Shown here one piece after another: positions 4,152-48,799 of a stretch of DNA of 64,000 nucleotides. The position numbers were made by a program, and so were the translations under genes. The first letter of the stretch is position 1; each line of letters begins with the position of its first letter. The DNA comes from Escherichia phage VEc25: the sequence record MW175414.1; one strand, given 5' to 3'. The notes under the pieces were generated by a model. That model saw only the letters and a list, made by a program, of their open reading frames with translations. It searched no databases and was not told where the DNA came from.

Positions 4152-4528
4152 AAGAAGTATTCGTATTTGGTTCTAACCTTGCTGGTGTACATGGTGCAGG
4201 TGCTGCAAAGACAGCATATAAGAAACATGGAGCCAGATGGGGTAAAGGGCATGGTCATTATGGTGACAGCTATGCCATTCCCACTAAAGATACCAATATC
4301 AAAACGATGGCTATTGAAGACATTCGTACATTTGTAAATGCCTTCATTGTCTATGCTGCTAATCATCCAGAACTTAACTTTAAAGTTACTCGTGTAGGGT
4401 GTGGATTAGCTGGTATTGATGATTCTGTTATGGCCTCTATGTTTAAAAATGCCACTGGTAACTGTTCCTTTGACTTAGCATGGAAAAGTTACTTAGGGGA
4501 TGATTTCAACTACTGGGGAACGTTCTAA
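4142..4528 (+). CDS. Hypothetical protein with glycine-rich Rossmann-like motif
   Basis: N-terminal VFVFGSNLAGVHGAGAAKTA and C-terminal RVGCGLAGID motifs. Confidence 0.45.
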   Translation: MQMKEVFVFGSNLAGVHGAGAAKTAYKKHGARWGKGHGHYGDSYAIPTKDTNIKTMAIEDIRTFVNAFIVYAANHPELNFKVTRVGCGLAGIDDSVMASMFKNATGNCSFDLAWKSYLGDDFNYWGTF

Positions 4529-22285: not shown

Positions 22286-22813
22286 ATGCAACTGGGTGAA
22301 AAACAAATCCGTGAAATGACTAATAGTAGTGAACTGGTTCAGGAATTATTCTTAGCCGAGTTACGTCGGCTAGATAAAGTACTGGATAGTATTATTACAC
22401 GTAATGGGGAAACATTCGCTGTATACAACTCAACAGGGTTCCTGTATTTAGGGGAGTTCTATTCGAGTTCCCGTTCATCACAACAACCCCCTTCTGGTCA
22501 TCGTCTGGCTCTAGCTAATCACCTACTGGATGATATGCGGGAGTATCTGGAACAAGCAGGTAAACTTCTGCTAGAAGTCCATATGGTAAATCAGATGGTC
22601 TTTCGTCTGGTTCAGGGCTGTAAAACTTATCAAGACGTTCGTGATGCATTGCCAGAATGCCTCATTGCTATGGATAAACAGGGTCATCTGAAATCCTTAC
22701 AGAGAACCAGAAAGGCAGCATTTACTCTGGATAATGATGCTATGGCTCTCCGTCAGTATGAGAAAATCTTACCGATTATCGAATACTATGCGGGAACCCA
22801 TCTTATCTTTTGA
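22286..22813 (+). CDS. Hypothetical protein
   Basis: ORF between the helicase and the DNA polymerase. Confidence 0.4.
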   Translation: MQLGEKQIREMTNSSELVQELFLAELRRLDKVLDSIITRNGETFAVYNSTGFLYLGEFYSSSRSSQQPPSGHRLALANHLLDDMREYLEQAGKLLLEVHMVNQMVFRLVQGCKTYQDVRDALPECLIAMDKQGHLKSLQRTRKAAFTLDNDAMALRQYEKILPIIEYYAGTHLIF

Positions 22814-22820
22814 GGTCTGT

Positions 22821-24785
22821 ATGCGTCACATTACATTCAACAATGAGGGTATCTACCCTATTGCTATCCTTACTACAACGTTACGTAAGGATGATATTGT
22901 CAAAGCATACATGGAACCCTGGGATGTAGATAAAGATTCAGTAATGATTCTTGAACTTCATACAGCCCCAGGGAAAAAGAAAACTCCTGCTAAAGAGATG
23001 CAGGAGTTTATTACCCAAGAATTAGTGCCAGCATTCGAAGCAGCACAAACTCAGTATATCATCTGTGGTGATTCTGAATATTACAAACAGCTAACCAAAC
23101 AAGGTAAAGCTGATGCCAATATTGGCTATGTAATGGATTGTGCTTATGGGAACCAGAAAGTTATTTACGTTCCCAATTACAGACAAATCTTTTATGACCC
23201 GGATAAGGTAAAGACTAAGATTGCTTTATCTATGCAGGCTCTGATTGATTATGTCTCTGGTTCTTATGTTGAGCCAGGAACTAAGATTATCCACTATGCT
23301 GATTATCCATTAACTCCAGAAGCTATATCTAAGTGGTTAGATAAGTTACTGGAGATGAATGTTCCGTTAGCAGTGGATATAGAAACTTTCAGTCTGAAGC
23401 ATTATGACTGTGGTATAGGCACTATTACATTCTGCTGGAACAAGCATGAAGGGATTGCATTCCCTGTGGATTATGAACCAATTGAGGGGGCTACTGAAGC
23501 TCCTTATGGTAGACAAGTTCACAACATGCTTGTTCGTTCTATGCTCAGGGACTTTTTTATTAAGTATCTGAACAGGCAGATGTATCACAATATTGCCTTT
23601 GACGTATATGCACTCATTTACCAGTTATTTATGACAGACCTTCTGGATACGGAAGGGTTGTTGCATGGCATGAGTATCATGCTAAGAAACTGGGATTGCA
23701 CTAAGTTAATTACCTATCTGGCCACTAATTCTTGTGCTGGTAATAAGCTAAGTCTTAAAGACCAGGCTCAGGAATATGCTGGTAACTATGCTCAAGAAGA
23801 AATCAATGACATTACCAGAATCCCATTAGCAGAGTTGTTGGAATACAACTTAGTGGATGGATTATGTACCTGGTATGTCTATGAAAAGCATTGGGATACT
23901 CTGGTTAATGACCAACAGTTAGATGTTTATACAAACATCTTTAAACCTGCATGTGAAGATATTATTCAAATGCAGTTAACTGGTATGCCTATCAATATGA
24001 AGACAGTATTGGAGGTAGAAGAGGCATTAACCCAAGACTATAACAATGCGTTAAAAACAATTGCTGACAGTAAAGTAATCAAAGATTTTACCCGTCTTCT
24101 TAATGAAGAATGGGTAGAAAAACAGAACCAGATTCTGAAGAAGAAACGAGTGACTTTAGCTGATGCTAAAGAGCAGTTTAATCCAAACTCAGGTATTCAA
24201 TTACAGAAGCTACTTTTTGAGTTTCTGGGGTTACCCGTACTGGGTCTGACTGCAAGTAAACTACCTGCTACTGGTAGTGGCATACTCAAGTCTTTGAAGA
24301 ACCATACTCAAGATACCAGTATTCTGGAAATTCTTGATGCTCTGATTGATTACAAAGCTGTAGATAAAATTCTGACAGCATTTATTCCAGCATTAAAAAA
24401 TGCCAGACAAGGACCAGATGGTTGGCATTATCTCTTTGGTAATCTGAACTTAGGTGGGACTGTATCAGGCCGTCTATCCAGTAGTGAACCAAACCTACAG
24501 AACCTACCTTCTGGTTCCAGATATGCCAAGATGATTAAAAAGTGTTTTGAGGCTCCCCCTGGGTGGATATTCTGTGGGCTAGACTTTGCTTCTCTCGAAG
24601 ACCGTATATCTGCTTTAACAACCAAAGACCCTAACAAGCTGAAGGTGTACATGGGTGTGACTGTTTATACAGTTACTATAGAAGGAGTTGACCATCATAT
24701 CCGAGATGATGATACAATCGTTTATGATGGTAAAACTTATACCGGTGAGGAGTTCTATGACGCTTTTACCCGTGGCCTTCTATGA
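22821..24785 (+). CDS. Family A DNA polymerase, N-terminal part (3'-5' exonuclease plus palm motif A)
   Basis: Exo I-like LAVDIETFS; motif A-like GLDFASLEDRI. The ORF stops about 60 codons after motif A; motifs B and C lie in a separate downstream ORF. Confidence 0.7.
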   Translation: MRHITFNNEGIYPIAILTTTLRKDDIVKAYMEPWDVDKDSVMILELHTAPGKKKTPAKEMQEFITQELVPAFEAAQTQYIICGDSEYYKQLTKQGKADANIGYVMDCAYGNQKVIYVPNYRQIFYDPDKVKTKIALSMQALIDYVSGSYVEPGTKIIHYADYPLTPEAISKWLDKLLEMNVPLAVDIETFSLKHYDCGIGTITFCWNKHEGIAFPVDYEPIEGATEAPYGRQVHNMLVRSMLRDFFIKYLNRQMYHNIAFDVYALIYQLFMTDLLDTEGLLHGMSIMLRNWDCTKLITYLATNSCAGNKLSLKDQAQEYAGNYAQEEINDITRIPLAELLEYNLVDGLCTWYVYEKHWDTLVNDQQLDVYTNIFKPACEDIIQMQLTGMPINMKTVLEVEEALTQDYNNALKTIADSKVIKDFTRLLNEEWVEKQNQILKKKRVTLADAKEQFNPNSGIQLQKLLFEFLGLPVLGLTASKLPATGSGILKSLKNHTQDTSILEILDALIDYKAVDKILTAFIPALKNARQGPDGWHYLFGNLNLGGTVSGRLSSSEPNLQNLPSGSRYAKMIKKCFEAPPGWIFCGLDFASLEDRISALTTKDPNKLKVYMGVTVYTVTIEGVDHHIRDDDTIVYDGKTYTGEEFYDAFTRGLL

Positions 24786-25302
24786 ACAACGGTATAAGAT
24801 TTCCGATGAAGGTTTCATCTTAAATCTTGCAAACAATCAACCCCTAAAACCGACTCTCAATCCTAACGGATACCTTAAGGTTGGGTTAGCTAATGGGGAT
24901 GGTACACATCACCAAGAGCTACTTCATATTCTGGTAGCTAAACACTTCATCCCTAATCCTTATGGCTATGAACAGGTGAACCATAAAGATGGTAATAAAC
25001 TGCATTGTCATAAGGATAATCTGGAATGGTGCTCTGCTACTCAGAATGTTGAACATGCACTTAAAACAAGGCTACGTCCTGGTTACATGTCTGCTGACGA
25101 TAAAGAAAAGTATCTCTTTGAGGTGCTGGCAGGTAAGCAAGTTAAAGACATTGCTTTTGAAATAGGTAGACGTCCTGAAACTTTGCATAAGATGCTCAGA
25201 ACTACTGCTGACCGACTTGGTGTTCGAAATGAGTGGGATGATGTTATGAGGAGAAATAGAAAAGATGTTGCTTTACGACAGCTTGCCAAAATCAACTCAT
25301 GA
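24757..25302 (+). CDS. HNH homing endonuclease (HNH_3-like) inserted in the DNA polymerase gene
   Basis: Own gaggag RBS and ATG; N-terminal YKISDEGFILNL and core NHKDGNKLHCHKDNLEWCSATQN; lies in a third frame between the two polymerase ORFs. Confidence 0.6.
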   Translation: MTLLPVAFYEQRYKISDEGFILNLANNQPLKPTLNPNGYLKVGLANGDGTHHQELLHILVAKHFIPNPYGYEQVNHKDGNKLHCHKDNLEWCSATQNVEHALKTRLRPGYMSADDKEKYLFEVLAGKQVKDIAFEIGRRPETLHKMLRTTADRLGVRNEWDDVMRRNRKDVALRQLAKINS

Positions 25303-26095
25303 CTTCACTGGCAAGAAAATTGACAACGTAGTCAAAGCCGGGAGTTCATCAGGTTACGACGGGCATAGTCTACGTGCATATGCTTACTTCGGTGAGATGA
25401 TGCCTGACATTGAAGATACGGTAGAGTCTGTTAATTCTATTCAGGAGAAGTACAAAGCATATCGTCAGGATTCTAAAGCACCTACCTTTGCTCTTACCTA
25501 TCAGGGCACGTATATCACTTTGATGAAGAACTGTGGTTTCCCTGAACAGAAAGCTCGAATGGTTGAGGAACGTTATCACACACTTTATAAGGTAAGTGAT
25601 GACTGGGTTCAGGCTAAACTAGACCAAGCTGCAAAAGATGGTTATGTAACCGTAGCATTTGGCCTGAGAGTCAGAACCCCCTTACTTCAACAAGTTATCC
25701 GTGGAACCAGTAAAACTCCTTATGAAGCTGAAGCTGAAGGACGTACTGCTGGTAATGCATTAGGCCAAAGTTGGTGTCTTCTGAATAACCGTGCTGGTTC
25801 AGAGTTCATGCGTAAGGTACGGAATAGTAAGCATCGTCTTGATATTCGTCCAAGTACCCATATCCATGATGCTCAGTATTTCCTTATCCGTGATGATATG
25901 GATGTTGTGATATATACCAATACTCATTTGGTGAAAGCAGTACAATGGCAAGACCATCCTGATATTGCTCATCCAGATGTTCATTTGGGTGGGGAACTCT
26001 CCTTATTCTACCCAACGTGGGCTAACGAGATTGAGATTCCAAACTACGCTACGCCCGAACAAGTCCATGAAGCAATCCAAAAGGCATTTAAATGA
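25265..26095 (+). CDS. Family A DNA polymerase, C-terminal part (fingers/palm, motifs B and C)
   Basis: DGHSLRAYAYFG (Pol I DIHRATA-like), motif B-like SKAPTFALTYQGTY, motif C-like STHIHDA. Confidence 0.65.
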   Translation: MLLYDSLPKSTHDFTGKKIDNVVKAGSSSGYDGHSLRAYAYFGEMMPDIEDTVESVNSIQEKYKAYRQDSKAPTFALTYQGTYITLMKNCGFPEQKARMVEERYHTLYKVSDDWVQAKLDQAAKDGYVTVAFGLRVRTPLLQQVIRGTSKTPYEAEAEGRTAGNALGQSWCLLNNRAGSEFMRKVRNSKHRLDIRPSTHIHDAQYFLIRDDMDVVIYTNTHLVKAVQWQDHPDIAHPDVHLGGELSLFYPTWANEIEIPNYATPEQVHEAIQKAFK

Positions 26096-38200: not shown

Positions 38201-41200
38201 GCAGGGTTAGTACTATCAGGGTCAGCCATGAAATGTTCTACCGTAAGGTGTTTCATTACATGGGTATAAAGTTCCTGAGCACGAGCCATAGCATGTGGGT
38301 CAATTACAGCTTCAGTTGCTAATGCAGCAGTAACCATCTGGAATACAGATTGTTCCTGAGCAGTCATATTGAAGCCACGAGACTGAACATCACGAACTAG
38401 TCGAGTAGCACTCATTAATGCATTAGCCACATTGCCACGACGTTCTACTTCTGTAACTGGGTCAGTACGAAGGTAATCAGTTACCAGTTTATCGAAGGTC
38501 TGATTTAACTGAGACAGACGTTCATTGTTACCATATGCTTTGCTATGGAACAGTGTGCCATCTTTAGCTACTGCCTGAGTTGTAGGTTGGCTACGCATCA
38601 GAATTGCAGAATTAAACAGCAGATTAGAGAACATATCTTCTCCCAATGCAGGAGCTTGTTTACGTCCCCAAATCAATTTCTTAATGGCCTGATAAACATC
38701 TTTCACCATTTGAACCAGTGAAGATGTTCTCTTCTGTTTAGCAGCCAGAGCACGGTTAGCTAACCCCCAAGCCATAAACTCATTAAGAGCAGCAGCTTTA
38801 GAAATAGCTGGGTCAACAAAGCCATTACTCAAATGACCTTCAATAGTTGCAATAGCATCAGCATATGCTTCTCTCATTTCTGGAGAATCTTTGGAAATAT
38901 CCAGAGAACGGAACTGTTCCATCAGACCTTCAAGGTTCTCAATAGCCTGCTTAGATGTAGGGCTTACTTCATTACCCTGATAGAAGGAATAAACTTCCTC
39001 GAAGGTAGAAGCATGAACCAGTTCATGAATGAGGGTTTCCATAGATGGGCTAACCAGATAAATGGTCTTATCGTCGAAGTTAGTCCAGCCATAAATATTA
39101 CCTGCCTGAGCTTCTTCCATTTCCTGAGAAGTCAATTCAGTAACATTCTTCTGACGAGCATATTCTGCAACCTGAGTAGGTGTACCGTAGATAATCTTAT
39201 AGTCTTTAGCTGCCAGTGATTTCTGAATCTCTGCAAGAGTAGCTGCCTGAGTAGATGGCAGATTACTAATCTTAGCCAGGTTACGAATAGCAGTAGCAGA
39301 CAGGATACGAACACCGGATGCCTTATGCTCACGGCCTACCATACCAAAGTCTGGATTCACTGGTTCTTTTTCAGAAACAGTTTCTTCTTTGACTTCAGCC
39401 TTAGCCTTAGCGACTTTTTGTTTACGGGCTTCTAACTCTTCACGGAAAAGTTTATTCAGTTCATCAGCCTGTTGTTCAGGAGTCATATTGCTGAGGTCAA
39501 TCTTACCGTTGTTCTGATAAGGAGCACCTACAGCAGCCATCTGGTCAATGGACAGATTTACCTTATCCAGTACCTTATGGCGAATATCTACACCCAGTGC
39601 AATATTACGTAAGTTACGTTCAATCAGAGATGCAGCATTAGCAATATCATCTACAGTAGCATTCTCACGTTGGTCATATTCCAGGGCAGATTTACCAATT
39701 GCTTCCAATGCTTCAGGGGACAACTTGCTGAAATCTACATTCTTCATGAACTTAGTATATGATTCGTAAACATTCTTAATAGGGTTACCCTGCCAAGAAG
39801 TGTAAACAGCTTCATTAGCCTTACGACTAGCATCAGTAATGTCATTCAAACCAATGTTCATACCATCAAAGATTTTGAGGGTATTCTTTGGTGCACCTTT
39901 CATAGTGGAAAGAGTTTGCATCATCATGCCATCACCAGTACCAATAGTCATAAATGGAATACCTGCTACACCAGCCTGTGCTGGGGCATAGATACTCATT
40001 GGTACACGCATACGGTCATCAAGGTTAGTAGCTAATACCTGATTTGCTACTTCTGCATTTTCTGAGCCAGCAATGTAGAAAGTCTGAGAACCAGTCTCAA
40101 TCATAGGAGCTAAGTTATTCAGAGAAGCCTGAATATCATTCAGTTCTTTCTGAGTAAGGAAATCGCCTTTCTTCCATGTCGGGTCTTTAGCCTTCTCTGT
40201 CAGTTTCTCCTGTACTCGTTGTTTGAACATATCTTCCAGCACTACAGATTGAATCTGAGTAGCTTTCTGTAATTGTTCAGTGGAGTACACCAGACTTTCA
40301 CCTACAGTCTGAGTAATACCATTACGTAGTGGTTCTACAAAGAAGTGCAGCATATTTTCCTGAAGTGCCTTCAGTTGCTCACCCTTAATGGTATAGGTCT
40401 TAGGATTGATTTTCCCTTTGGCTCCTGCACCTGTGGATTGTAGTTCCAGTACACCTTTACGTTTAACAGGAACAGTAGAAGTCAGTGTTTCCATATCTTT
40501 CAGGAAACGAGCAAGAAGTTCTTCAGCATGTGCTTCTGAAGCAGCTTGCTTACCAAACATTGCCATAGCAGCAGAGATGTTTGGGTCTTTAGCACGAGCT
40601 TTCAGTACATCAGACATACGCTCATAGATGGCATCAGTAACAGAACTAACCAGCTTACCTGCAATACCACGAGCACCAGAACCATAGATAGTAATAGTCA
40701 GTGGGTTCTTAGCAATACCACGTTTAAGTTCTAAAGCACCATTCTCACCAAGATTAATATCCGGTAAGAACAAATCCATCAGAGAAAGAAGACTGTCTAT
40801 CTGGGACTGAATAGGCATATTAGAAGCGTAGTTACTACGTAACTTACCCAACGATTCCATCAAAGCATTAGTGGATGCTTGATATAAATCATTATTGTCA
40901 GCAGTAGAACGATGCTCATTCATGGTCTTATTTGGAGAACCAATGAATAAACCACCTTTGGCAATGTTACGAATCCAGTCAGGGGTAAACAGGCCACCTG
41001 TCATTAGCATCATGGCATTGATTGGACCATTAGTAACACCATCTGCTTCTACATACAGTGGGGTTACAAATGCAGATTTATCCTCTGCTACTAAGTAACG
41101 GGAATACTCCATAAGAGCCATCAATGCTACGAATGACTTCCTATCTCCTAATGCTGTATTCAGAACATCAACTGCATTTTCTGGTAAGGAACCAGTGGTA

Positions 41201-45808: not shown

Positions 45809-47743
45809 TTAACGAGGAAATATATCAGGGATACCCAATCGACGTCCGGCATCTCTGCCTAAACTTCTCCGGTTTGCCTCGCTCTCTTCCTGTTTAATAT
45901 TTTGTAGGCTCTTAATATCCAAATTCTGAGGGTCAGCAGCTACAGCATTACGAGCACCATCAAGAAGACGTTTAGCAGTGTTAACTCGCTCTTGATAGCG
46001 AGGTAGTACACTTCTAAGGTTTTCCTGACCGGTCTGAATACGACGCTGTACTTCACGTAAATCAGCAAGTGCAGTATCTAACGTATTCTGTGCTGCATAG
46101 ATGTTTGATTGAATTTGTGCAGTAAGCTGATTACGAGCATTCTGTTCAATAGCAGTACCAGTAGTTGCAAGTTTTGCATTTGCTTCTACGGCTGCTTTAT
46201 CCAGTTGGTAATCACCGCCCAAATCAATAACATCAGTATCAAAGGCATTTCGAATACCACTAAACCATCCCTCTGGTTTACCAGTGATACTACGTTGAAT
46301 GATTGCTCCTGCCATAGCGGGAGAAATAGCATTCTGTTTTGCTACCTCATTGATTTGTCGAACCAGTGCACCTTGGTTAATGCCTTTCAGTTCATTGCTA
46401 TCAATAATACGTTTAGCCACCTGACCAGTCGTAGAAGGGTCAACAGTAGCAGCTTGGTATTCAGGCAGCAGAGTATTACCAATATTCTGCATATTACGAG
46501 TACCAACAGTATTACCAGCAACAGAAGTGAATGCTTGTTCTTGTAATGGATTAATAGAATTACCTGTTTCTGCTTGAGCAATGTAATCCTTCATTTCATC
46601 CCATGACAGGTTCTTATAAGCACCAGGAGTATCATCTGGTAAAGCAGCCCATGTACTCTTCAGATTGCCATTCTTACGGGCATTAAAAATAGCTTCACCC
46701 AGTTTGTCTTGGTTCTCCGGAGACATAGGAATGTTCTGCCAATCTTCACCAAATACCTTTGGAGCAAAGTCTTTAAGGGTATCTTGGTTAATCTGGTATG
46801 CACCAACAGGAGAAGCACCTAGTGTCTTCTTCATAGTGTCTTGATGCTGAACCACCTCACCTAAGTTCATCTGAGTAATAGGTACATCAGTTGGTGTGAA
46901 CTTATAGGTAGTGTCATATGCAGAACCATTCCGAGTACCCTGAGTACCAGGAGGAGATAGAGATGCAGAACCAGTTCCCGGGGTATATGCACCTGGATAT
47001 GCTCTATCTAACTGAGATAGTGCACGACTTACTGCTCCTGGTGACATTTGGTCGAACGTACCCTCTGCAAGCATACGAGCATCGTCAGCACTGTATGCAC
47101 CACGACGAATATTATTCAGTAACTGCATAGCAGCCTGAGTATCCGCATCGTTACGCATATCAACACCTAAGTCGAATAAGCTACGACGTTGACCAATACC
47201 AGCAGTACCCTGCCCTTGAAGGTTGTTCATGTAGTCCATAACAACACCAGCAGGAAGGGTTTTTAATACATCCCCATACTGAGCCTGTGCTGCCTGAACC
47301 TTTCTTGGGTCACCAGATTGATAAGCCAGAGCCAATTCCTGCAATGCAGGAGCAGCAGCATCAGTAGCTGCATTTACCTTCATGATTCTGTCATTACTGT
47401 ATCGAGTGAAATCCAGATTTTGTTGTTTAGATGCTTGGTCTAACAGATTGCCAGCACGATTATCTAAGTTCTCCATAGTACGAGAAGAAATTAGAGAAGG
47501 GTCATAGCCAGCAAATAATGCTCCAGAAGCTAAGGCATTACGATACTCATTAGGGTCTTGGTAACGCATGGCTTCAGCCATAATTGCATCACCAGCTTGC
47601 TGTCTTGCAGAGTTTCGAAAATCACCTAATGCATTACTCAATCCGGCAGTGGCATTACCCAGCATATTGGAGAAAGTACGAATACTATCCCCAACACCAG
47701 AGAAAGAAGGAGCATCAACATTACGCCAGGTTATCTGACTCAT
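45809..47743 (-). CDS. Virion structural protein (hypothetical)
   Basis: 644 aa from the ATG at 47743 (ggaggc RBS, ATGA overlap with the upstream gene); located in the late operon next to vRNAP. Confidence 0.5.
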   Translation of the reverse strand: MSQITWRNVDAPSFSGVGDSIRTFSNMLGNATAGLSNALGDFRNSARQQAGDAIMAEAMRYQDPNEYRNALASGALFAGYDPSLISSRTMENLDNRAGNLLDQASKQQNLDFTRYSNDRIMKVNAATDAAAPALQELALAYQSGDPRKVQAAQAQYGDVLKTLPAGVVMDYMNNLQGQGTAGIGQRRSLFDLGVDMRNDADTQAAMQLLNNIRRGAYSADDARMLAEGTFDQMSPGAVSRALSQLDRAYPGAYTPGTGSASLSPPGTQGTRNGSAYDTTYKFTPTDVPITQMNLGEVVQHQDTMKKTLGASPVGAYQINQDTLKDFAPKVFGEDWQNIPMSPENQDKLGEAIFNARKNGNLKSTWAALPDDTPGAYKNLSWDEMKDYIAQAETGNSINPLQEQAFTSVAGNTVGTRNMQNIGNTLLPEYQAATVDPSTTGQVAKRIIDSNELKGINQGALVRQINEVAKQNAISPAMAGAIIQRSITGKPEGWFSGIRNAFDTDVIDLGGDYQLDKAAVEANAKLATTGTAIEQNARNQLTAQIQSNIYAAQNTLDTALADLREVQRRIQTGQENLRSVLPRYQERVNTAKRLLDGARNAVAADPQNLDIKSLQNIKQEESEANRRSLGRDAGRRLGIPDIFPR

Positions 47744-48276
47744 ACGTATAGCCTCCATCCACGGTGAGATTCACAAGTACCATCTCGCAAACGGTACATT
47801 TGCTTACGACTTAACCCGTGCTCACGGCAGAATTTGTTTAAATTAATAATTTCCACAACATCACCATTGGGGTTTATGTACCAATGAGACTTACTATTAG
47901 CCTTAGCTACGTTGTCAGACACTGGGATTAGTTTACAAACTTTTGGACTATACTCAGGGGCAAGTCCATTATCTTTATCCAACTGGTAGTTATTGTTTTC
48001 TGGGTCAATGCCTAAAAGGGAGCAAGTATCATAGTACCACTGAGCGAAGTCTTGGTAGTTACCCCATTCTTTACTAACAACAACCCCTTTCGCACCGTAT
48101 TGGGAATACCCAGGATTAGCCGGATTGTAGCACCGCATAAACATCCCCCACCATCTTATGTATGCAGAGCATGTTTTACTGCCATCTTTTGTTTTAGTAG
48201 AAAACTTACAACCAGAGTTAACCATATGAGCAGGTTTCCACTGAACGTTAATATTTGAGTTTGGGTATTGTTTCAT
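47740..48276 (-). CDS. Hypothetical protein with W-x2-M-x2-RC-x-NP / YGxxG motif (homing-endonuclease-associated domain candidate)
   Basis: 178 aa from the ATG at 48276 (aggaga RBS); IRWWGMFMRCYNPANPGYSQYGAKGVVV resembles a motif seen in phage proteins often annotated as HNH/homing endonuclease. Confidence 0.4.
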   Translation of the reverse strand: MKQYPNSNINVQWKPAHMVNSGCKFSTKTKDGSKTCSAYIRWWGMFMRCYNPANPGYSQYGAKGVVVSKEWGNYQDFAQWYYDTCSLLGIDPENNNYQLDKDNGLAPEYSPKVCKLIPVSDNVAKANSKSHWYINPNGDVVEIINLNKFCREHGLSRKQMYRLRDGTCESHRGWRLYV

Positions 48277-48346
48277 AGTTGTTCTCCTAATATTGGCACA
48301 CACTAACTAAACAATACCCAAATCTCAATGAGCCATGTGATACCTC

Positions 48347-48799
48347 TTAACGAGTTAAGCGATTAGCTGCAATGTAAGCATCAGCCGTAGATTGGTCACG
48401 ATTTTCTGCAACAGCACGACTACGAGCACGGTCTTCCAGAGCAGTGTTATAGGACTTAATCTGGTTATTCAGATTAGTGTTAGTAACATCTTTAGCAAAA
48501 GAGAACTGATTCTTAGCTAACTTGTTAGCCTGTAATGCACCATAGATATTACCCAGTGCATTAAGACCACCTAACCCCAACTGGAAGGTAGGAATGTTCA
48601 GACCCAGTTGGTCAGTAAGCCCTTGAGTCTGTCCACCGGTATTCCCTGTAGCACCACCAGTAATGTTCTGAAGCCAGTCATTACTAAGGATGCCGGATTG
48701 CATAGGGTTATAGTTCATGGTTGGGGTATTAAAGGAACCATATCCATAGCCAAAATTGCTTTGTGCAGATGGGGTTCCAAAAAGGAAATTAGTATCCAT
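48347..48799 (-). CDS. Hypothetical virion protein (Gly/Asn/Thr-rich)
   Basis: ORF with ATG; low-complexity G/N/T/Q-rich. Confidence 0.45.
   Translation of the reverse strand: MDTNFLFGTPSAQSNFGYGYGSFNTPTMNYNPMQSGILSNDWLQNITGGATGNTGGQTQGLTDQLGLNIPTFQLGLGGLNALGNIYGALQANKLAKNQFSFAKDVTNTNLNNQIKSYNTALEDRARSRAVAENRDQSTADAYIAANRLTR

Follow-up and report, generated by a model that had tools for sequence, protein, structure and literature searches.

An inserted gene in the ejection-protein operon of VEc25

The 64,000-nt stretch of the Escherichia phage VEc25 genome analyzed here (sequence record MW175414.1; hereafter the window) carries an open reading frame (ORF) at 47740-48276 on the minus strand, between two virion protein genes, that had been predicted from the sequence alone to encode a 178-aa protein resembling HNH or homing endonucleases. 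Our comparative evidence places this ORF within a precise insertion in the ejection-protein operon gp52-gp51-vRNAP, probably a cassette formed by a free-standing homing endonuclease gene (HEG). The 178-aa ORF is present as described, the peptide IRWWGMFMRCYNPANPGYSQYGAKGVVV is found in its translation, and its neighbors are indeed virion genes, namely homologues of phage N4 gp52 (16.5 kDa virion protein; 48347-48799, minus strand, upstream) and gp51 (66 kDa virion protein; 45809-47743, minus strand, downstream), the latter containing the putative target site. Both neighbors encode ejection proteins, which form a periplasmic tunnel and outer-membrane complex (PMC13434306). The coupling to the downstream gene was likewise recovered, with the TGA stop of the ORF overlapping the gp51 ATG as GTATGAGT, i.e., an ATGA overlap. 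The ORF list extends the ORF that ends at 47740 to a GTG at 48303 (187 aa); the ATG at 48276, which lies 7 nt downstream of an AGGAG, gives the 178-aa form. Comparison with N4 and other phages suggests that 47743 (MSQITWRNV) is most likely the true start of gp51, as opposed to the longer ORF start at 47758. The ORF protein is 100% identical to a database entry of the same length, 'Uncharacterized protein' of Escherichia phage VEc25 (A0A7T1JPS9). Six DNA copies of the ORF (the window and five relatives, down to 59% aa identity) were compared; all are intact and their pairwise dN/dS values range from 0.04 to 0.16, which identifies the ORF as a real protein-coding gene under purifying selection and neither a chance ORF nor a decaying relic.

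A blastn comparison shows the window to match N4 nucleotides 1-62724 collinearly, at ~98% identity, and to contain exactly two extra blocks, one in the DNA polymerase gene (24650-25351) and one that holds the ORF (47739-48328, minus strand). Collinearity with N4 breaks at 47738/48329, with a 3-nt ambiguity, and the 590 bp in between are missing in all 14 records of 98-99% identity recovered by megablast (N4 counted twice, PMBT57, AlfredRasser, and others). It is near certain that this 590-bp block, with its ORF, is an insertion, one of the two possibilities raised in the original prediction, and the suggested check for presence or absence at this locus in related phages revealed a patchily distributed gene. 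With a GC content of 0.403, the insert does not stand out from the window as a whole (mean 0.413).

The boundaries of the element can be read from the alignment of both junctions with N4. In N4, 10 nt separate the stop of gp52 from the start of gp51, and the minus strand runs TAA-GAGGTATCAC-ATGGCTCA and continues directly with AATTACATGGCGT. The window keeps TAA-GAGGTATCAC-ATGGCTCA, continues with TTGAGATTT into the ORF, and rejoins the N4 sequence where ATGAGTCAGATAACC meets TGGCGTAATG. The element thus inserted 8 nt into gp51. A vestige of the original gp51 start, consisting of the ribosome-binding site (RBS) GAGGTATCAC and ATGGCTCA followed by TTGA, remains at 48325-48346 (minus strand) and is found in all six occupied loci. 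In the window, the vestigial ATG and an immediate in-frame TGA (48325-48336, minus strand) form a 3-codon mini-ORF (M-A-H-stop), and the sequence ATG(G/T)CTC(A/G)TTGA is common to the six copies. We also observed that the mini-ORF is kept in every occupied locus, as MAH-stop, MAR-stop, or MSH-stop, and that its TGA is part of the TTGA of a promoter-like -35 hexamer. At the other end, the gp51 start is re-created from sequence of the element (47729-47756, minus strand), with a GGAGG in the last HEG codons (G-W-R) followed by ATGAGTCAGATAACC, which differs at 5 of 12 positions from the ATGGCTCAAATTACA of the empty site.

The spacer between gp52 and the ORF measures 70 nt. The 5' end of the element carries a promoter-like motif, TTGAGA and TAGTGT separated by 17 nt (48300-48328, minus strand). 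The pattern TTGAnn-17-TAnnnT recurs in the six-copy alignment, with one copy (L005) reading TTGACC-17-TAATAT, and this conservation makes it a candidate promoter.

Distribution and horizontal transfer

Homologues of more than 60% identity were detected by tblastn in only two phages of the collection, namely PGN829.1 (94% aa identity), a member of Gamaleyavirus whose homologue YP_010659736 is annotated as HNH homing endonuclease, and ST4 (67%), in which the homologue is unannotated. In both phages the homologue is located between gp52 and gp51. The same gp52/gp51 site, adjoining vRNAP, is occupied by metagenomic homologues with identities of 59-79%, and two Logan contigs combine an N4-type backbone with the same gene, being 98.8% identical to the window over 5.2 kb. 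Every close homologue that we examined, whether from metagenomic contigs (59-99% aa identity) or from PGN829.1 and ST4, is thus situated between gp52 and gp51. Conservation of the protein at this position across N4-like phages, named in the original prediction as evidence against a mobile gene, was not found, with the gene being present in only 3 of 163 phage records that contain gp52 (two records of PGN829.1 and one of ST4). In the ST4 record (OM982646.1; locus L003, 4001-4552), the intact homologue encodes 183 aa, and the 'structural protein' (gp51) coding sequence is drawn from an ATG inside the homologue ORF (locus position 4494); the gp51 start of ST4 is therefore probably mis-annotated.

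The HEG has a history distinct from that of its surroundings. Between the window and PGN829.1, the HEGs are 94% identical in amino acids and 90% in nucleotides, whereas the flanking gp51, gp52, and gp53 share only 47-65% aa and 58-70% nt identity. A cassette so much more alike than its flanks has moved between genera by horizontal transfer. Traces of this transfer extend into gp51. Among the sites at which N4 and PGN829.1 differ, gp51 nucleotides 4, 5, 9, 12, and 15 of the window show the donor-type base, while from nucleotide 33 on the window has the N4-type base at nearly every such site, which places the crossover within a 17-nt stretch that is identical in all.

A conserved putative target site and recoding of occupied alleles

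Forty-eight phage records that span Enquatrovirus, Gamaleyavirus, and one Klebsiella phage contain the 32-nt sequence of the empty site, ATGGCTCAAATTACATGGCGTAATGTTGATGC, with 100% identity. The site is 84-97% conserved in more distant N4-like phages and far better conserved than the DNA around it. We regard this sequence as the putative recognition site. In occupied alleles, the changes from the empty site fall within gp51 codons 2-5, and four of the five are synonymous. A target that is conserved in empty alleles and recoded in occupied ones is the classic pattern of homing endonucleases, and the recoded gp51 start would confer immunity on occupied alleles.

Two cassette-less phages depart from the canonical ATGGCTCAAATTACA. 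The gp51 starts of EC1-UPM (L016, ~963; ATGAGCCAGATAACA) and IME11 (L015, ~959; ATGCCGATTACA) resemble the recoded, occupied allele and may represent cleavage-resistant alleles or footprints of precise cassette loss.

Protein family, fold, and DNA-binding module

The ORF protein falls into PHROG families labelled HNH endonuclease, the match to phrog_2081 (E=2.4e-39) covering profile positions 93-249 of 433 only. A single-sequence search of the PDB with the ORF protein gave no match. The family is large: an exhaustive search with the family profile recovered 1,781 representative clusters at E<=1e-10, and the middle domain by itself has matches in 1,088 of the 50,697 phage records, predominantly those of Vibrio, Staphylococcus, and Bacillus phages, where it is variously annotated as HNH endonuclease, AP2 domain protein, winged-helix protein, or hypothetical protein. 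The solved fold nearest to that of the ORF protein is the homing endonuclease I-HmuI. This fold, the PHROG families, the insertion absent from relatives, and the recurrence of the same junction elsewhere all bear out the predicted resemblance to homing endonucleases, and the ORF very probably is a gene of a homing-endonuclease family.

An AlphaFold (AF2) model and conservation figures built on 98 homologues outline three regions behind an extended N-terminus (pLDDT 91.2). A helical domain with the consensus SAYxRWWGMFxRCYNP..YG.KGV.V..W spans codons 37-88 (48013-48168, minus strand; AF2 helices 37-50, 55-59, and 74-88), and its R48, Y60, and W71 are invariant. An HNH-derived beta-beta-alpha region follows in codons 97-127 (47896-47988, minus strand; YQLDKD...Y109.P..C114....N122), to which DSSP assigns strands 97-100 and 115-118 and helix 119-127; the predicted topology is that of a beta-beta-alpha-metal fold. 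Codons 131-176 (47749-47886, minus strand) encode an I-HmuI-type NUMOD-like module, modeled as a hairpin plus helix-turn-helix. The family profile matches residues 110-168 of I-HmuI (1u3e) in this module (HMM, E=8e-4; hhalign probability 86.6%). For PF22083 (I-HmuI NUMOD-like), the ORF protein by itself has no Pfam match, but relatives exceed the cut-off, e.g., that of Bacillus phage Grass with 68.5 bits. The Cys/His-containing C-terminus of the original prediction does contain such residues, but they belong to the NUMOD-like helix-turn-helix and not to a zinc-finger-like element. A zinc-finger reading was ruled out by the helix-turn-helix fold and the lack of CxxC pairing of the cysteines.

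Further observations concern the wider family. In phage Grass, a family member is flanked by two fragments of the DNA polymerase. Matches to the middle domain also occur under features annotated as DNA polymerase (H139, Vibrio phage ICP2_2006_A, ~40561-40794) and thymidylate synthase (H146, Tenacibaculum phage PTm1, ~199968-200186); both genes are typical homing sites, and the matches hint at further intron- or intein-like insertions of the family. In the metagenomic GIY-YIG proteins P0027, P0072, and P0104, the ~45-aa C-terminal module (..PxG....I.NL..FCRENxL....M..V..G...SHKGW) occurs as three tandem repeats behind the catalytic domain, which shows that this DNA-binding module is shuffled between homing-endonuclease classes. 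Labels of family members are inconsistent and include 'putative portal protein', 'winged helix-turn-helix DNA-binding domain protein', 'AP2 domain protein', and 'restriction endonuclease' (P0015 from Vibrio phage 489E54-1, Vibrio phage 1.276.O, and others); of these labels, that of a portal protein very likely reflects mis-annotation.

A catalytic motif without histidine

As direct profile evidence for HNH homology failed, the catalytic motif was linked to that of I-HmuI transitively, via Staphylococcus phage proteins and shared PHROG positions. The family profile aligns with the Staphylococcus phage protein L009 at an hhalign probability of 98%, and the L009 motif YQLDRIDNNDDYKPNNCRWVTPKENANN has the HNH-like pattern LDRIDNN..Y.P.NC.W.T..EN. 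L009 and I-HmuI match the same positions of the HNH families phrog_4578 and phrog_99. On phrog_374, the HNH motif of I-HmuI (residues 63-103) occupies positions 316-355, within the range of 249-387 that is matched by the ORF protein. In this alignment, I-HmuI D74 corresponds to D100 of the ORF protein (L009 D82), H75 to K101, the structural N87 to V113, and N96 to N122 (L009 N103). Of the I-HmuI sequence behind this numbering, residues 110-168 were confirmed by the profile match.

The metal ligands (D100, N122) are thus kept, whereas the general-base histidine is not. Across the 98 homologues, Y109 and C114 never vary, and conservation of D100, K101, D102, and N122 is at least 90%. The histidine position is Lys in at least 90% of the homologues and Arg in the relatives from Staphylococcus phages. 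Y109 lies in the omega loop between beta-1 and beta-2, and the invariant R48 in the first helix. Precedents exist for both residues, as PacI lacks the catalytic His and an omega-loop Tyr takes over, and as in some His-Me finger enzymes an N-terminal helix contributes an additional Arg (PMC5714182). From the positions of Y109 and R48 we propose a PacI-like, Tyr-assisted site in which Y109 may take over the role of the histidine. Given the replaced histidine and the missing match to a nuclease model, cleavage activity of the ORF protein is a prediction. The 'HNH' label of the original prediction accordingly stands at the level of PHROG families and not at that of the catalytic residue, which is Lys in place of His, and the profile search that it suggested gave an equally divided answer, with no Pfam or NCBIfam nuclease model matched and a negative comparison with canonical HNH_3.

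Homing as a proposed explanation and its alternatives

It is attractive to propose that the ORF protein is, or recently was, an active homing enzyme, and the sequence evidence makes this the likely explanation of the locus. Homing could proceed as follows. Briefly, during co-infection the 178-aa protein would bind the empty site ATGGCTCA^AATTACATGGCGTAATGTTGATGC of a cassette-less phage through its NUMOD-like helix-turn-helix and helical domain, and its HNH-derived beta-beta-alpha-metal site would nick or cut nearby. This site is non-canonical, with the metal ligands Asp100 and Asn122 retained and Lys101 in place of the general-base His, which omega-loop Tyr109 may replace in function, as the Tyr does in PacI. 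Repair of the break from the HEG-carrying genome would then copy the cassette into the cut genome. The cassette would be both harmless and self-protecting. The old gp51 RBS and start remain as the 3-codon mini-ORF, and expression of the HEG could rely on the promoter-like TTGA-17-TAnnnT motif and its own RBS. The ATGA overlap rebuilds the gp51 start, with the Shine-Dalgarno sequence encoded in the last codons of the HEG, and recoding of the first five gp51 codons should destroy the recognition site.

Several results weigh against this proposal. No Pfam or NCBIfam nuclease model matches the ORF protein, and no family member with demonstrated cleavage was found. When a canonical NUMOD4+HNH_3 alignment, constructed with the other HEG of the window (24688-25302), is compared by hhalign, nothing is found in the motif region, and hhalign of the family profile with I-HmuI aligns the C-terminal DNA-binding module only. 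The weakest step of the transitive chain, HNH_3 against L009, has E=0.009 and a probability of 4.5%, with motif falling on motif. A sigma-70 consensus scan calls no promoter in the window copy, in which TTGAGA/TAGTGT is a weak match. The co-conversion tract is tiny, and as the stretches of shared sequence that contain the crossovers measure 8 nt and 17 nt, the last transfer event cannot be reconstructed. In addition, the catalytic His is nearly invariant in the superfamily, and two other His-less groups are taken as inactive (PMC5714182).

Loss of activity, as assumed for those two groups, is therefore the main rival. The ORF protein would then be a catalytically dead, HNH-derived, sequence-specific DNA-binding protein, e.g., a regulator or domesticated former HEG, and its patchy distribution the result of ordinary homologous recombination between co-infecting phages and not of homing driven by the element. 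Replacement of the catalytic His by Lys101 and of the structural Asn by Val113 fits this explanation, as do the lack of a matching nuclease model and the view in the His-Me review that His-less groups without a substitute are inactive (PMC5714182); strong purifying selection, too, would be expected of a function useful to the phage. Evidence against a dead protein comes from the precise, site-specific architecture in diverged genomes, in which the 5' boundary after ATG(G/T)CTC(A/G) is identical in all six copies, from the recoded target in occupied alleles, and from the cross-genus similarity that is discordant with the flanks. Other members of the family are found at classic locations for homing, a split DNA polymerase being one example, the metal ligands and omega-loop Tyr are conserved in a way that matches the PacI solution, and N4 and most relatives manage without the gene. 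Taken together, we consider a dead protein unlikely, though it deserves to be taken seriously.

That N4-type phages can dispense with a gene that is nonetheless under purifying selection would also suit a moron-type accessory gene that acts in anti-defence or superinfection and is built on a homing-endonuclease-like DNA-binding scaffold. A PADLOC scan of the ORF protein gave no match, its resemblance to AcrVA3 is confined to ~50 residues of the DNA-binding module, and neither strict fidelity to one locus nor recoding of a target is expected of a moron, which leaves such a role improbable. The original prediction had offered a genuine small virion protein as its alternative. The position inside the ejection-protein operon and the translational coupling to gp51 would suit such a protein, which would be an ejection protein of the gp52-gp51-gp50 module. 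This alternative is effectively refuted by the absence of the gene from N4, a phage with analyzed virion and ejection proteins, and from 160 of the 163 gp52-bearing records, and the fold and family of the protein are DNA-binding and nuclease-like.

Comparison with known homing endonucleases and PacI

The interpretation as a HEG cassette is consistent with what is known of free-standing phage HEGs. Those of the T4 seg/mob and I-TevIII-like kind are intergenic cassettes with their own expression signals between essential genes; T4-type HEGs target the HEG-less allele of a neighboring gene and are polymorphic among close relatives, with exchange of flanking sequence. The VEc25 element has these cassette traits in common with them. 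Their enzymes, in contrast, have canonical GIY-YIG or HNH sites and demonstrated cleavage, whereas the catalytic center of the VEc25 protein is non-canonical and known from sequence alone. The PGN829.1 HEG (YP_010659736) is a close counterpart, at the same gp52/gp51 locus and with 94% aa identity, but in a phage of a different genus (Gamaleyavirus). HEGs are known in N4-like phages, and N4 itself was noted to be without any and has been portrayed as lacking selfish elements (PMC3670811).

Phage SPO1 I-HmuI (PDB 1u3e), an HNH homing endonuclease, is intron-encoded, whereas the VEc25 gene is free-standing. I-HmuI has the canonical D74-H75...N96 site, in which the VEc25 protein has Lys101 for His, and an N-terminal beta-sheet DNA-binding domain, which the VEc25 protein lacks; a conserved helical RWWGMFxRCYNP domain lies ahead of the motif in the VEc25 protein. 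PacI (PDB 3m7k; His-Me finger group 20) resembles the VEc25 protein in its omega-loop Tyr in place of His, the position of Y109 in its predicted role. No sequence homology was detected between the two proteins, and PacI, a homodimeric restriction enzyme whose fold is stabilized by zinc-binding cysteines, has neither the NUMOD-like module nor the helical N-domain of the VEc25 protein. The 'group I intron endonucleases' of the GIY-YIG type, in which the NUMOD-like repeat occurs three times (e.g., P0027 and P0072), share the module F.xPxG..v.I.NL..FCRE..L....M..v..G...SHKGW with the VEc25 protein, but their catalytic domain (PF01541) is absent from it.

Our literature search yielded no publication that deals with this gene, with VEc25, or with a characterized family member, and the PGN829.1 and VEc25 entries consist of annotation labels only. 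What is known, then, is the kind of element and the HEG label in PGN829.1; what is unusual is that a very widespread family has a catalytic motif without His.

A second HEG block and significance for phage biology

The other block absent from N4 (24650-25351, 702 bp) interrupts the DNA polymerase gene (N4 gp39), so that the polymerase is divided between ORFs 22734-24785 and 25265-26095. It encodes a canonical homing endonuclease (24688-25302, plus strand) with the motif VNHKDGNKLHCHKDNLEWCSATQNVEH, homologues of which carry the Pfam domains NUMOD4 and HNH_3. As both extra blocks relative to N4 are HEG cassettes, the two phages form a clean before/after pair for studies of homing in the N4 model, inside the ejection-protein operon. 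The cassette shows how a selfish element can be inserted harmlessly into the first codons of an essential gene: the old start persists as a vestige, a new one is rebuilt, and the C-terminal codons of the inserted gene itself encode a Shine-Dalgarno sequence.

Many entries named 'HNH endonuclease', 'AP2 domain protein', 'winged-helix protein', and even 'portal protein' belong to the His-less family, and annotation would gain from knowledge of whether its members cut DNA, which might also lead to nucleases of new specificity. We tentatively put forward, as a possibility that for now is rather less likely than its opposite, that the family constitutes a large uncharacterized class of phage homing endonucleases, in which His has given way to Lys or Arg, the invariant omega-loop Tyr does the chemistry, and an N-terminal helical domain with an invariant Arg provides support. 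If true, this would be a PacI-like, possibly covalent, mechanism that has never been shown for a homing enzyme, and N4 and VEc25 would offer a natural donor/recipient system for testing the Tyr mechanism.

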